From: a virus
Taxonomy: Duplodnaviria; Caudoviricetes
DNA length: 58,691 bases
Strand: one strand, 5' to 3'
IMG/VR virus record: IMGVR_UViG_3300030060_004945
Location: 1 to 58,691 of that record
How positions within the stretch are numbered: the stretch's first letter is position 1; each line of letters opens with the position of its first letter. Shown here piece by piece: positions 49,968 through 54,356 of this stretch. The translations under genes and the position numbers were made by a program. Under the pieces are notes generated by a model, which saw only the letters and a list, made by a program, of their open reading frames with translations, did no database searches and had not been told where the DNA came from.

Positions 49968-50002
49968 TTCAATATAGTTTTAATTTGTAACTGACACAGA
50001 GG

Positions 50003-50317
50003 TTACCCTCTGTCTTTGATAAATTCCACTACTGCCCTATAAGTTTCCTCTATGTTAGTTGAAAGGAAATTATTAGATTCCCAATCCTCATTGTTAGGTA
50101 TGTTACCAATATGAGTTGGCAACTTACCACTTATGGATTTTATCTTATCCACAACAGGCATGAGCCAATTCCAATCAGTGTGGTACCATAAGTCTTCTAA
50201 ACTTCTACAACCACCACTTTCTCCATAGTCATACATAGGTTTAGTCAATGTGTTTACATTTTCTAATCCCATAAATTCTGCAATAATCTTATTGTCTTTC
50301 ATTTTTCTTGCAAACAT
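50003..50317 (-). CDS. Early cassette gene (NKIIAEFMG...WNWLMPVVDKI family)
   Basis: Start corrected to the ATG after the repeat; the ORF-track extension translates the repeat. Confidence 0.75.
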   Translation of the reverse strand: MFARKMKDNKIIAEFMGLENVNTLTKPMYDYGESGGCRSLEDLWYHTDWNWLMPVVDKIKSISGKLPTHIGNIPNNEDWESNNFLSTNIEETYRAVVEFIKDRG

Positions 50318-50377
50318 TTTAATATAGTTTTGATTTGTAACTGACACCCAATGTTTCACAACATTAGGTATTGTTTT

Positions 50378-50659
50378 TCATCCTTGTAAATGGTATGAGG
50401 TAGCCAAATGGTTTAGAAAGTTATCTATTCCATCCCATTTGTAGAAATTTCCATCCATTACACAATACTTTTTTTCTTGTGTGTAAATTTTACCCACCAT
50501 TTTTCCGTTTATTTCAACGAATATTTGATACCATAAATCAGATTTAGGAGTTTCATAACCTCTTTCGTTTAGGTTTTTTTCTACCTTTTCTTTATCCAAT
50601 GCATCACTAAAACCACCAAGCATTGAAGCATAAGTGATTTCGTTTGAAAATTGTTTCAT
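50378..50659 (-). CDS. Early cassette gene, hypothetical
   Basis: ATG after the repeat. Confidence 0.75.
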   Translation of the reverse strand: MKQFSNEITYASMLGGFSDALDKEKVEKNLNERGYETPKSDLWYQIFVEINGKMVGKIYTQEKKYCVMDGNFYKWDGIDNFLNHLATSYHLQG

Positions 50660-50694
50660 AATTGTAATTTTAAATTTGTAACTAACACTTGGTA

Positions 50695-51102
50695 TCAGTC
50701 GATACTTCTACCAAGTCTTCTCTCATTGTCCACATACTCTTTCATATGGGATGAGAAGTTGTTTTCTGCTTCCTTGTAGTTGTCAGAAACGATTTCGGTC
50801 TTCAAAAACCAAGTTTTCTCATATGGTCGTAAAACAATCTCAACGTTCCCATATTTCTTATCAATCTCGTTGTACCAATTGTTGAAGTGGCTTTTATCCT
50901 TGATTACTACCCTACCCATACAATCGGCAGAAGGCATAGTGACTTCATCACTATCCATAGTAACCATTAGATATTCAAAAGTAAGGTCTTGCAATAACAC
51001 ATTGTGTTCTGAATTATCCTCACTTCTCTCGTGTAGTGACTCGATAAATTGATCGAATCCATCAAGGTAGTTTTTCATACCTTCATCAAAAGTAAATTCC
51101 AT
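50695..51102 (-). CDS. Early cassette gene, hypothetical
   Basis: ATG after the repeat. Confidence 0.75.
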   Translation of the reverse strand: MEFTFDEGMKNYLDGFDQFIESLHERSEDNSEHNVLLQDLTFEYLMVTMDSDEVTMPSADCMGRVVIKDKSHFNNWYNEIDKKYGNVEIVLRPYEKTWFLKTEIVSDNYKEAENNFSSHMKEYVDNERRLGRSID

Positions 51103-51138
51103 TTTAATATAGTTTTAGTTTGTAACTGACAAGATAGC

Positions 51139-51603
51139 TTATGCTATCTCGTGTAATTCCCCATCAATCTCTATGTATTGATAATCATCTTCATCCTCCC
51201 ACTCCGTGTGGTAGTAGTAGTCTGCGTGATAGTAATCTTGCAGTAGAAATTCATCTGTCAATCTACCCTCTGCAATATCTTTGTCGTACTCTTGGTTATT
51301 TTCTTTCTCTACCTTACGCAAGAAAGCAATCAAGTTTTCTTCATCCTTGATATACATTTCACCTTCTCTAACAACATATCCGGAGTTTATTCCGTTGCCG
51401 GTAAGAGCACATTTTCTTGCATACTTCTTTGAGTTATTGTATAAATTCTCATAGTGAGTTACCTCCTCTTTACTTATGCATATATCAAATGTATCAGATA
51501 GTTCTTTGTTCCATACAGATACAATACAATCTACAATAGTAGAGTAAGTGTCAATTCCGTGCATCAAGTTTATCATTGTACTTGCTTTTTCAAATTTGTT
51601 CAT
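51139..51603 (-). CDS. Early cassette gene, hypothetical (acidic C-terminus)
   Basis: ATG after the repeat. Confidence 0.75.
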   Translation of the reverse strand: MNKFEKASTMINLMHGIDTYSTIVDCIVSVWNKELSDTFDICISKEEVTHYENLYNNSKKYARKCALTGNGINSGYVVREGEMYIKDEENLIAFLRKVEKENNQEYDKDIAEGRLTDEFLLQDYYHADYYYHTEWEDEDDYQYIEIDGELHEIA

Positions 51604-51655
51604 TGTAGTATAGTTTTAATTTGTAACTAACCGGAGGGGTAAACCCCTCCTTAAT

Positions 51656-51898
51656 TTAAAGTCGTTTAATTCTTAGTAATTCATTTTTAATATCATCAAA
51701 TAAACCATCTATATCATCTCTAATTAGGTCTAATTCATTAGTGATATTTTGATAATCTTGACCTTTCTCGCTATATTGCCATTTCTCACTTCTTTCATCC
51801 CAAAATTTCTCTCTATTTTCAACCATTTCATAAAGTTGATTCATTAAATTATCATTAAATACTTCTATTGAATTTTCTATTTTATCTATTTTGTTCAT
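51656..51898 (-). CDS. Early cassette gene, helical (RSEKWQYSEKG)
   Basis: ATG after the repeat. Confidence 0.75.
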   Translation of the reverse strand: MNKIDKIENSIEVFNDNLMNQLYEMVENREKFWDERSEKWQYSEKGQDYQNITNELDLIRDDIDGLFDDIKNELLRIKRL

Positions 51899-51949
51899 TG
51901 TAATATAATTTAAGTTTGTAACTGACCGGAGGGAAACACCCTCCTTAAT

Positions 51950-52162
51950 TTAATGTGCGATTCTTGGAACAAAATACTCATCCTTCGATAGTATCCCATT
52001 GAAGTCGTGGATTACATCCGATACTTTATAGTTGCCACTAATCACTTTGTCAACCCACTTCGGATTGATTTCATAAACTTGATTAACATCATCTAATTCG
52101 TAATTGGAAGGCAAAGTAACATATAGCTTTGCAATTTTGTTCATCTCATCATAAATTCTCAT
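51950..52162 (-). CDS. Early cassette gene, hypothetical
   Basis: ATG after the repeat. Confidence 0.75.
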   Translation of the reverse strand: MRIYDEMNKIAKLYVTLPSNYELDDVNQVYEINPKWVDKVISGNYKVSDVIHDFNGILSKDEYFVPRIAH

Positions 52163-52210
52163 TGTAATATAGTTTTAGTTTGTAACTGACAGAGGGTTGC
52201 CCCTCTCAAT

Positions 52211-52711: not shown

Positions 52712-52778
52712 TGTAGTATAATTTTGGTTTGTAACTGACTGCCAATGTTTCACAACATTAGCTTAAGATTATTGACTT

Positions 52779-53024
52779 CTAAAACCCATCCGTTCTTTCG
52801 GTTATTGTAAAGGAATTAAATAAAGATAATATATCTTTTATTCTTGGTTCGTGTATTAAGCCAATTTGCTCTTCCTCAAACCAATATCCATCCTTAAGAT
52901 ATAACCAATATGTGTAATCATATCCATCAAATACATGGGGATTGTATTCCCTTTCTACTTCACACACTAAAGGATGATTTCTTAAGTCATTTAATGTTCG
53001 CATTTTTCTTTTTGTAGTTTTCAT
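52779..53024 (-). CDS. Early cassette gene, hypothetical (YWLYLKDGYWF)
   Basis: Start corrected to the ATG after the repeat. Confidence 0.75.
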   Translation of the reverse strand: MKTTKRKMRTLNDLRNHPLVCEVEREYNPHVFDGYDYTYWLYLKDGYWFEEEQIGLIHEPRIKDILSLFNSFTITERTDGF

Positions 53025-53071
53025 TTTAATATAAAATTGTTTGTAACTGACCGGAGGTTTCCCTCCGTAAT

Positions 53072-53353
53072 TTAATACGCTGATAATGGTAGATTTATAT
53101 CTACATACTCCATATCTAACCCCATTTTCATACAAAAATAGCATCTCAATTCAAAGGCAAGGTCTATCAAGTCCATATCCGACCTCCAATCTTCGATAGT
53201 GCAGTCGTTCCCAATTCTTCCAAGTATCCCTCCTCCAAGATAGTTTTGGTAGGCAGTCATCTTTTCTCCTTCGTATCCGAAGTAAGTCAAGTCGATTTCA
53301 ACACCTCCACCTCGTGAAGATAGTTGTTCTCTTAAAATAGCATTTTCAATCAT
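53072..53353 (-). CDS. Early cassette gene (MTAYQNYLGGG)
   Basis: ATG after the repeat. Confidence 0.75.
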   Translation of the reverse strand: MIENAILREQLSSRGGGVEIDLTYFGYEGEKMTAYQNYLGGGILGRIGNDCTIEDWRSDMDLIDLAFELRCYFCMKMGLDMEYVDINLPLSAY

Positions 53354-53403
53354 TGTAGTTTTAATTTAAGTTTGTAACTAACACCCTCCGGAGAGGGATT
53401 GTT

Positions 53404-53556
53404 TTACTTACGAAGTTTCTTAAGGTCTTCGATCGATTCACAAGCGTTAACCTTTGCGTTCCACTCGGTGTGAAATTTCAAAGGAGTTTTGATAAGTTTA
53501 GCTTTCGCCACTGATAATTGGTTGATGTATCCACCACCTCTATTAGCATTTTGCAT
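53404..53556 (-). CDS. Early cassette gene (50 aa, MQNANRGGGYINQLSVAKAK...)
   Basis: Translated by eye; lies between two repeats. Confidence 0.75.
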   Translation of the reverse strand: MQNANRGGGYINQLSVAKAKLIKTPLKFHTEWNAKVNACESIEDLKKLRK

Positions 53557-53607
53557 AGTAGTAATAATTTAAGTTTGTAACTGACACCTTCCGAAGAAGG
53601 TATTGGC

Positions 53608-53700
53608 TTACTTCTTGACCACCACTTGTGGTTTCTTTTTCTTGAGTAAACCTTTGATTCTCATAGTTTCGTATTTAACTTCTAAAGTTTGAAAAGTCAT
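53608..53700 (-). CDS. Early cassette micro-protein (30 aa, MTFQTLEVKYETMRIKGLLKKKKPQVVVKK)
   Basis: Lies between two repeats; start corrected. Confidence 0.7.
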   Translation of the reverse strand: MTFQTLEVKYETMRIKGLLKKKKPQVVVKK

Positions 53701-53749
53701 AGTAGTATAATTTAAGTTTGTAACTGACACCCTCGTAAGAGGGGTGCTT

Positions 53750-54031
53750 TTAACAATAAATTTCATCCGGCATATTCTGTTGTAGGTCATCAATCTTTTT
53801 GCAATACTCTACATACTCCCAACATTTAGATAGGTTTTTGTATGCGTACTCAAAAGCATCAATAGTATTTTCAGTTTGTGCCTCTAAAAGTTCTTCCGAT
53901 GCCCCAAGCCATTGGTAATACATTGTATCGTTGTATTGACCTCCGGATTGACTTTTGAATGCATCTGCAATCTTGTCAAAAAGTTTTTCGCATCTTAAAT
54001 ACATTAGTAGTAATTTATCTTCTTTTGTCAT
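53750..54031 (-). CDS. First early cassette gene, hypothetical
   Basis: Start corrected to MTKEDK after the repeat. Confidence 0.75.
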   Translation of the reverse strand: MTKEDKLLLMYLRCEKLFDKIADAFKSQSGGQYNDTMYYQWLGASEELLEAQTENTIDAFEYAYKNLSKCWEYVEYCKKIDDLQQNMPDEIYC

Positions 54032-54045
54032 TGTAGTATAATTTA

Positions 54046-54168
54046 AGTTTGTAACTGACACAGATACTTCTACAAGTGTATCTGTCGTTGTGTTTCGACC
54101 ATTTAAGGTAGATGCTTGAACACCCTCCGGAGTTTATACTCTCCGGCATCATCAGAGTTACCTAAACT
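54046..54168 (-). ncRNA. Hammerhead-type ribozyme with expanded stem II
   Basis: Sense: AGTTT-AG-GTAACT-CTGATGA-T-G[three hairpins]C-GAAAC...GTC^AGTTAC-AAACT. Stem I is GTAACT/AGTTAC; core CUGAUGA 54155-54149 and GAAAC 54096-54092; GUC triplet 54059-54057. Confidence 0.7.
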
Positions 54169-54356
54169 GCTTAAGGCAGTTAGTCTGTACTACATTTCCC
54201 ATTGACTGCTCTGTTCTGATGTGCTTCTATCTGATTCGATTACTCTGTACCTTCCTATACTCTATCGCCCCCCTCCCTATCAGATATCACATCTGAATCA
54301 TTGGTAGCTACGATAGTAGGCAAGATAGCCATTAGGCATCATCTTACTTGTCAGTC

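Follow-up and report, generated by a model that had tools for sequence, protein, structure and literature searches.

A predicted hammerhead ribozyme leader and thirteen substrate-like modules in a phage early operon

Introduction

Can one small RNA enzyme cut a polycistronic phage transcript in front of each of its genes? The question is raised by the IMG/VR record IMGVR_UViG_3300030060_004945, a nearly complete phage genome (completeness 97%, CheckV estimate) whose full length of 58,691 nucleotides (nt) we call the window. On its minus strand a run of 13 small early genes follows a promoter and a structured leader. Every one of these genes has the same short motif before it, and the leader contains the core letters of a hammerhead ribozyme. 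An initial annotation of this DNA had read the motifs as the substrate sites of a single hammerhead, one of them cut in cis and the others in trans.

Results

The repeat modules

A search of the window for GTYAGTTACAAAY that allowed up to one mismatch returned 13 matches. Every one was exact and lay on the minus strand; the chance expectation over 100 dinucleotide shuffles was 0.51 on average, with a maximum of 3. The initial annotation had placed one copy before each early gene, and all of them were found again with no mismatch at the positions stated there. We also reproduced its triplet counts (GUC in 10 copies, GUU in three) and its distance of 24-26 nt from the predicted cut to the ATG, with 24 nt in two copies, 25 nt in nine and 26 nt in two. 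The final base of the motif is C in nine copies and U in four. Each copy is adjoined by a G+C-rich hairpin of variable sequence, and we refer to hairpin and motif together as a module.

Module 1 (54047-54085), the cis site, consists of the hairpin hpD (54085-54060), the triplet GUC (54059-54057) and AGUUACAAAC (54056-54047), and the predicted cut falls at 54057/54056. For module 2 (53716-53743) the hairpin at 53743-53730 is followed by GUCAGUUACAAAC with the predicted cut at 53726/53725. The same order of hairpin and motif is seen in module 3 (53573-53601; hairpin 53601-53586, predicted cut 53583/53582), module 4 with GUU (53370-53397; hairpin 53397-53384, cut 53380/53379), module 5 (53039-53067; hairpin 53067-53052, cut 53049/53048), module 6 (52727-52762; hairpin 52762-52741, cut 52737/52736) and module 7 (52178-52206; hairpin 52206-52191, cut 52188/52187). 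It continues with module 8 (51914-51944; hairpin 51944-51928, predicted cut 51924/51923), module 9 with GUU (51619-51650; hairpin 51650-51633, cut 51629/51628), module 10 (51118-51150; hairpin 51150-51131, cut 51128/51127), module 11 with GUU (50674-50716; hairpin 50716-50687, cut 50684/50683), module 12 (50333-50369; hairpin 50369-50346, cut 50343/50342) and module 13 (49983-50013; hairpin 50013-49996, cut 49993/49992), all on the minus strand.

The array has a Bacteroidetes-type host promoter at 54398-54428 of the same strand, found by a scan for what we take to be the consensus of that group (-33 TTG, -7 TAnnTTTG): TTG lies at 54428-54426 and the -7 box TATATTTG at 54405-54398. Ahead of the 13 genes there is no second intergenic site of this kind, and the distance from it to the first motif copy is about 330 nt. 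The scan of intergenic TAnnTTTG boxes with an upstream TTG gave no canonical host promoter between the 13 genes, and a screen for sense-strand hairpins followed by a T run flagged only one of the 13 modules as terminator-like. The lone upstream promoter, the lack of others between the genes and the hairpins without T runs together point to a single transcript in which 13 standard cassettes follow a structured leader. In related phages the promoter is kept, and sequence conservation begins at it.

We also encountered an inverted motif copy on the plus strand at 49428-49439 (minus-strand reading UUGUUUGUAACU), a perfect antisense of the motif core located just downstream of the next minus-strand promoter (49467-49460). 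No counterpart was found at the equivalent place in 17 other loci, and the inverted copy may be due to chance or specific to this genome.

Anatomy of the leader

From 54168 to 54092 the leader reads GUUUAG-GUAACU-CUGAUGA-U-G...C-GAAAC, so the hammerhead core and the GUAACU arm are present as initially annotated. All nucleotides of a hammerhead core (C3 U4 G5 A6 N7 G8 A9 and G12 A13 A14) occur in the correct topology. The A15.1-U16.1 pair and an NUH triplet are also there, with GAA-AC opposite GU-C, and stem I has 6 base pairs (bp), GUAACU/AGUUAC, directly next to the core with N1.1-N2.1 paired. CUGANGA occurs a single time on the minus strand within 49900-54200, in the leader and directly 3' of GUAACU. 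The string GTAACTCTGANGA would be expected 0.0075 times in the whole window when both strands are counted.

Read 5' to 3' on the minus strand, the leader starts with an upstream non-coding part (54181-54390), which according to the alignment is kept in most relatives and replaced in two lineages, L058 and L110 (L numbers denote related loci throughout). The hairpin hp0, ACUGC-CUUAA-GCAGU (54166-54180), lies just 5' of the stem I arm. The stem I enzyme strand (54156-54165) consists of UU, an AG bulge and GUAACU, and complements AGUUAC-AA of all 13 sites. It is followed by the core segment C3-A9 and an extra U (54148-54155, CUGAUGA at 54155-54149). In the stem II domain (54097-54147) the pair G10.1 (54147)-C11.1 (54097) closes a four-way junction, where a simple hairpin is usual, and the 5' strand runs directly into the first of the three hairpins hpA (54146-54127, loop AGUAUAAA), hpB (54125-54110) and hpC (54109-54098). 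Then comes GAAAC (54092-54096) with G12 A13 A14 at 54096-54094 and A15.1 C15.2 behind them; its AC is able to pair with G16.2 U16.1 of any site. The linker from C15.2 to hpD (54086-54091) is 6 nt long in the window and 7-10 nt long in relatives, and its sequence varies as well. Stem III of the leader would comprise only two continuous pairs (AC/GU), followed by a 6-10-nt linker and an 8-bp hairpin; an alternative stem III pairing, ACACA/UGUGU, can form by slipping.

One detail of the earlier reading of stem I had to be given up. It had paired a G of the arm with the final pyrimidine of the motif. That G belongs to the covarying hp0, and nine of 15 distinct leaders read GC-UU-AG. The arm extension GUUU/AAAY is therefore not conserved in relatives, and stem I can be lengthened beyond GUAACU/AGUUAC by UU/AA alone. 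The AAAY tail also varies at a few sites of relatives.

Hammerheads in related phages

The neighbouring GroEL gene led us to 80 related loci. The motif is absent from most of them; in its place, many have type I hammerheads of textbook form, which lie immediately ahead of early genes and on the strand that encodes these. The canonical build is a 6-nt arm, CUGAUGA, a stem II of 4-6 bp, GAAAC, a stem III hairpin, GUC and the complement of the arm, and the distance from the hammerhead to the ATG of the early gene is 20-35 nt. A descriptor of this build (6-nt arm, CTGANGA, an optional N, G...CGAAA...GUH and the arm complement) was applied to 79 loci with 1,237,849 bases. It gave 50 matches on the early strand (32 distinct, two of them leaders of the window type) and none on the opposite strand. 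Within the window the descriptor matched the leader only. There was no match in 25-kb stretches of two GenBank relatives, Flavobacterium phage elemoA_1-5B and MW202828.1.

As a positive control we scanned the relative L033 in E-value mode, and two of its three copies were recognised by the Rfam model Hammerhead_1 with 31.0 bits (E 1.8e-5) and 27.6 bits (E 2.4e-4). The gathering score of that model is 34, and a scan of seven related loci with canonical hammerheads at the gathering threshold yielded no match. Hammerheads of this family fall just under the gathering score across L017-L095 (for example L033:7300-8400, L093:1412-1465 and L047:7912-8307). Some canonical copies carry stem III insertions of 40-65 nt. 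The extra U behind CUGAUGA was observed in four of 24 aligned canonical copies (L040, two copies in L046, L090).

The leader occupies the same niche as these hammerheads, on the early strand before early genes. Because relatives carry canonical type I hammerheads in that niche and share the extra U, we consider it likely that the leader (54165-54047) is a hammerhead that has diverged, its stem II being branched and its stem III interrupted, and we treat it as a predicted ribozyme. As the leader reads as a diverged member of the early-gene hammerheads of the family, the 13 repeats are best read as hammerhead 3' halves. The nearest GroEL relatives, L019-L022 (81%), have the arm GUAACA and the site GUC-UGUUAC-AAAUUU. 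This site is clearly homologous in sequence to GUC-AGUUAC-AAAYUU of the window lineage, and the 2.1/1.1 pair is switched on both sides between the two. In L054 a complete hammerhead stands ahead of a gene homologous to the one that follows module 9.

Other elements were seen in individual relatives. L049 has a palindromic hairpin AGTCTAGY-CGACTAGAC seven times before early genes, and TAACTAAAA occurs 11 times in the L032 locus, in most cases 10-13 nt before an ATG. A complete canonical hammerhead with the arm UAUACU/AGUAUA lies inside the same module array in L058 (L058:4425-4478) and in L136 (~7280-7340), one in each; both genomes also have the leader of the window type.

Conservation of leader and sites

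A motif search of viral contigs gave four contigs with 6-10 copies (L009, L010, L012, L016), all of which have the same leader. Approximately 20 further contigs came from a search of metagenome contigs with a pattern of core plus loop, which brought the total to 15 distinct leaders. Multi-copy repeat arrays kept core and arm in 4/4 cases found by searching for the motif and in 3/3 cases found by searching for GroEL. A blastn comparison of the array with a phage collection gave no DNA match, and a k-mer search for other repeats and a loose arm search were too noisy for direct use.

When the 15 distinct leaders are aligned, the hammerhead-like structure has 584 of 584 cells paired. Seven pairs changed on both sides: two of the five pairs in hp0 (ACUGC/GCAGU vs GCUAC/GUAGC, with every cell paired), three in hpA, where the changes make up four compensated variants around an invariant loop, and one each in hpB and hpC. 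Since these pairs change on both sides, the peripheral hairpins hp0 and hpA-C are real on the evidence of the alignment. Stem I, G10.1-C11.1, AC/GU, hpD, CUGAUGA and GAAAC are invariant. The junction helices (stems I and III and G10.1-C11.1) are compatible with a hammerhead model and contribute no covariation to it.

The sites were compared across 26 loci of the lineage with 132 distinct sites. At H17, 96 of them have C and 36 have U; A and G never occur. The hairpin directly abuts G16.2 in 105 sites, and a gap of 1 nt is seen in 15 and of 2 nt in five. Of 105 sites, only two have AC immediately 5' of the hairpin, from which we conclude that G16.2 and U16.1 of a module, judged by sequence, are without a local partner and available to the AC of GAAAC. 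The build of the cis site matches that of the other modules, with its hairpin tied to GAAAC by a linker that is variable in sequence and length. It resembles a trans module on a tether, and we regard this resemblance as the strongest argument for the idea of cleavage in trans.

The loop of hpA, AGUAUAA(A) at 54140-54133, complements (U/C)UAUAYU, which 10 of the 13 window sites have about 9-10 nt downstream of AGUUAC. A pairing of this kind could serve as a tertiary contact between loop and strand. We tried it as a kissing loop between hpA and the 5' leaders (AGUAUAA with UAUAYU), found it in only 61 of 148 sites of the lineage and dropped it as evidence.

One predicted catalytic core and many sites

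In the canonical relatives every GUH-plus-arm site ahead of a gene has its own core. The window is different: its single CUGANGA on the minus strand leaves the 12 distal sites without a catalytic strand, and the view that one core faces 13 sites held up in this comparison. We counted additional GUH-plus-arm matches for 43 combinations of locus and arm. Canonical arms have 0-2 extra matches each, none of which shows a hairpin or gene context. For the GUAACU arm there are nine core-less matches in L058 and 11 in L030 (one stray match each, lacking hairpin and gene context) and 12 in the window. Genomes with the elaborated leader carry 6-17 core-less modules with hairpin, GUY and AGUUAC, and among the 43 combinations such modules are confined to these genomes. 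The co-occurrence of leader and core-less modules is exclusive.

That the one leader ribozyme cuts the 12 core-less modules in trans is the reading of this arrangement that we pursue, tentatively and with slightly less than even confidence.

Proposed mechanism

The following sequence of events would account for the arrangement. The 13 small early genes would be transcribed by the host RNA polymerase as one operon from the promoter at 54428-54398. The leader of ~335 nt would end in a diverged type I hammerhead with stem I GUAACU/AGUUAC and the core CUGAUGA(+U); its G10.1-C11.1 pair would continue into the branched stem II domain, followed by GAA. Of stem III, only the pairs A15.1-U16.1 and C15.2-G16.2 would be left; they would stack on an independent hairpin, joined to the enzyme strand through the flexible linker. 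The ribozyme would cut in cis after GUC at 54057/54056.

The other 12 sites would be the same substrate module (hairpin, GU, H17, AGUUAC) minus the catalytic strand. The enzyme strand of the leader would dock on each of them through stem I and the two AC/GU pairs and then cut, with the hairpin of the site itself stacking as the distal part of stem III. Cutting would give every upstream piece a protective 3' hairpin and a 2',3'-cyclic phosphate. Every gene would start with a standard 5'-OH leader of 24-26 nt. Such a system could have evolved from cis hammerheads at every gene by the loss of all catalytic strands except one. Catalysis in cis, catalysis in trans and the chemistry of the RNA ends are what we infer here from sequence. 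The proposal in full, a protein-free, multiple-turnover hammerhead with a four-way-junction domain that dices the early operon at 13 sites (6-17 in relatives), seems to us finely balanced, with doubt marginally ahead.

Discussion

Evidence against the proposal

A number of results weigh against this proposal. As a check the initial annotation had suggested Infernal models, and these did not detect the leader: the Rfam hammerhead models gave no match to the array or the leader alone at E<=10, and no hammerhead in the whole window at E<=1. A family model (R1) built from six canonical hammerheads and run with filters off also misses the leader at E<=10. The leader spans 122 nt including a 50-nt insertion, which may be beyond what models of 45-54 positions can align. 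Nearest-neighbour energies are unfavourable as well, with -24.5 kcal/mol for the active fold compared to -37.6 kcal/mol for the minimum free energy (MFE) fold, a gap of 13 kcal/mol. The MFE fold keeps stem I and extends it by GAU/GUC, which buries the scissile bond. For four canonical relatives the active fold lies within 0-1 kcal/mol of the MFE. Even for an energy model that takes no account of tertiary contacts and puts a penalty on junctions, the gap of the leader is large.

The structure itself is also unusual, as stem II is a single G-C pair before a four-way junction, and we know of no described hammerhead of that form. In trans, stem III would have only 2 bp, or 3 bp where 16.3 is U (101 of 123 sites). 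A self-cleaved enzyme would keep its hairpin-GUC tail, which could compete with the substrates. Stems I and III show no variation within the lineage and therefore no covariation: arm and sites are the same in ~25 related genomes, and the only compensated difference is the one to the nearest canonical lineage. Conservation extends past the pairing with the arm, to the AAAY tail and the downstream leader including ACUAC before the ATG. In the DNA of relatives cassettes are gained or lost whole with breakpoints inside the motif (52726->53039 with 13 shared letters, 49982->52180). Such whole-cassette changes exactly at the motif show, at the level of sequence comparison, that recombination also helps to keep the copies alike. 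Data from one metatranscriptome run were available as contigs only, which cover a small share of the stretch; their ends reflect cassette differences and not RNA ends, so they weigh neither for nor against the proposal.

For the claim that one hammerhead processes 13 sites the outcome is therefore mixed. Sequence anatomy, homology and co-occurrence support it, whereas the Infernal searches, the arm extension and the missing covariation of arm and repeat do not.

Alternative explanations

The most probable alternative, which we nevertheless judge unlikely, is that the leader ribozyme acts in cis only and that the 12 other modules are relics of hammerheads that lost their catalytic strands. The relics would persist as gene cassettes, each with a 3' hairpin that stabilises the upstream cistron and a uniform leader for translation initiation, and would be kept alike by recombination between cassettes. 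The gain and loss of whole cassettes exactly at the motif fits this, as does conservation that reaches past the pairing region (AAAY, and ACUAC before the ATG); the very short trans stem III and the energetically disfavoured active fold also speak for it. Left unexplained are the invariant G16.2 and U16.1, the restriction of H17 to C or U in 132 sites, the hairpin that ends exactly at G16.2 in 105 of them, and the occurrence of core-less modules only alongside an elaborated leader.

We regard it as improbable that the 13-nt motif is the site of a host or phage endoribonuclease or of a translational regulator, with the leader as its antisense partner. The anti-motif GUU-AG-GUAACU-CU-GAU complements all 13 nt with two 2-nt bulges, and the pairing would mask sites or make duplexes for a double-strand nuclease, the core-like letters being leftovers. 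The MFE fold of the leader indeed pairs GUAACU[CU]GAU with GUC-AGUUAC, and the motif is longer than stem I requires. T4 RegB and RNase III acting on T7 are precedents for the processing of phage early messenger RNA by proteins, and we count them in favour of this explanation. However, the neighbouring stems differ among the 15 distinct leaders whereas CUGAUGA, G10.1-C11.1 and GAAAC stay the same throughout, and the core elements are placed exactly as in the canonical hammerheads of relatives. A PHROG search with nine early proteins and the upstream open reading frame (ORF) produced no candidate nuclease.

Very improbable is the third alternative, in which the motifs are promoters of a phage-encoded or phage-modified RNA polymerase with a terminator hairpin ahead, like early cassettes of the T4 type: one conserved element does stand at a fixed distance before each gene, and the structural genes are crAss-like, a group of phages that carry a virion RNA polymerase (10.1101/2020.03.07.982082, in the part of the work drawn on here), but no ORF of at least 150 amino acids (aa) has a DxDxD motif, the repeats lack the -33/-7 host elements that other operons have, sigma-70-like sites are not enriched (20 found vs 23.6 expected), and homology links the motif to the 3' half of the hammerheads in relatives. 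For phage phi14:2 the same part of that work describes early transcripts with no common upstream motif (10.1101/2020.03.07.982082). A polymerase of the crAss virion type was dropped as a candidate, as the ORF of 2710 aa has neither DxDxD nor a PDB match and no other long ORF has DxDxD. The repeats were also rejected as host promoters or terminators, given the absence of -33/-7 elements, the single terminator-like module in 13 and the lack of enrichment of sigma-70-like sites.

Genome, host and setting

The record has a G+C content of 35.6%. Its ends, 1-110 and 58580-58691, are repeats of each other of ~110 nt, which fits a circular assembly or a terminal repeat. The structural genes are of podovirus and crAss-like type (muzzle-like protein, terminase, portal). 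Judged by the large terminase, which is nearest to those of Flavobacterium, Cellulophaga, Tenacibaculum and Maribacter phages, the phage probably infects a member of the Flavobacteriia. Most operons of the window are preceded by intergenic TAnnTTTG boxes of the Bacteroidetes type. Together with the absence of a DxDxD-type polymerase motif from all window ORFs of at least 150 aa, these boxes suggest that transcription of the phage probably relies on the host polymerase.

The ORF of 2710 aa (31078-39210, plus strand) occupies the position of the virion RNA polymerase in crAss-like phages. It contains no DxDxD motif and has no PDB sequence match; a DUF3293 segment and a match to PHROG 32588, a family of unknown function, were detected. 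A transfer RNA gene at 39903-39976 on the minus strand (Rfam, 70 bits) is the sole RNA family over the gathering score in the window. For nine early proteins and the upstream ORF the PHROG search gave no informative match and one weak match to a family of unknown function.

Comparison with known systems

If the proposal is true, this phage lineage would have a natural hammerhead with one enzyme and many substrates, next to relatives that keep the likely ancestral state of one ribozyme per gene. It would bear on the evolution of trans activity in RNA enzymes and provide a compact natural design for RNA-only processing of an operon. The conservative reading would still extend present knowledge: a marine Flavobacteriia phage family with genomes of ~60 kb and many hammerheads before early genes, including an elaborated variant that the Rfam models and the family model miss.

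To our knowledge natural small self-cleaving ribozymes are almost only cis-acting and single-turnover. RNase P RNA is a natural multiple-turnover RNA enzyme that acts in trans on many substrates by recognising a structure that they share. The proposed system would resemble it in that one RNA enzyme serves many structurally alike substrates. RNase P differs in that it is large, has a protein subunit, works by hydrolysis, leaves 5'-phosphate ends and is universal rather than specific to phages. RNase III on T7 early transcripts and T4 RegB cut between genes and leave hairpins at 3' ends. They are protein nucleases, whereas here the only matching catalytic element found is RNA. PeSL cassettes of T4-type phages bring together small early genes with an upstream stem-loop and a conserved element, and recombination shuffles the cassettes. 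The cassette joints at the motif in the window family fit such element-based shuffling. The PeSL element is a sigma-70 promoter, whereas the element described here would be a hammerhead 3' half and lacks a promoter consensus.

Most natural hammerheads self-cleave and are not trans-acting (PMC6412130, as far as consulted), and according to the part of a 2019 review considered here natural trans-cleaving small ribozymes were still being sought (PMC6765202). In the literature searched, mostly at the level of abstracts, we found no published description of a natural one-to-many hammerhead. The same part of the review covers a discontinuous hammerhead in the 3' untranslated regions of mammalian CLEC2 genes (Martick et al. 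2008, via PMC6765202). As in our proposal, enzyme and substrate strands lie far apart on the same transcript there; the CLEC2 case is eukaryotic and, as presented, one enzyme strand serves one substrate strand and not many.

The closest precedent is found in the survey of Perreault et al. 2011 (PMC3088659). In the portion used here, several complete type I hammerheads flank prophage or phage genes, a role in transcript processing is proposed, and haloviruses HF1/HF2 have a hammerhead a few nt before an early gene (PMC3088659). Core, three-helix plan and proposed transcript-cutting role are the same as here, and the arrangement is that of our canonical relatives. In the cases seen in that portion each cleavage site has a complete ribozyme, whereas in the window one catalytic strand would serve 13 sites, with a branched stem II and a stem III consisting of two pairs and a detached hairpin.

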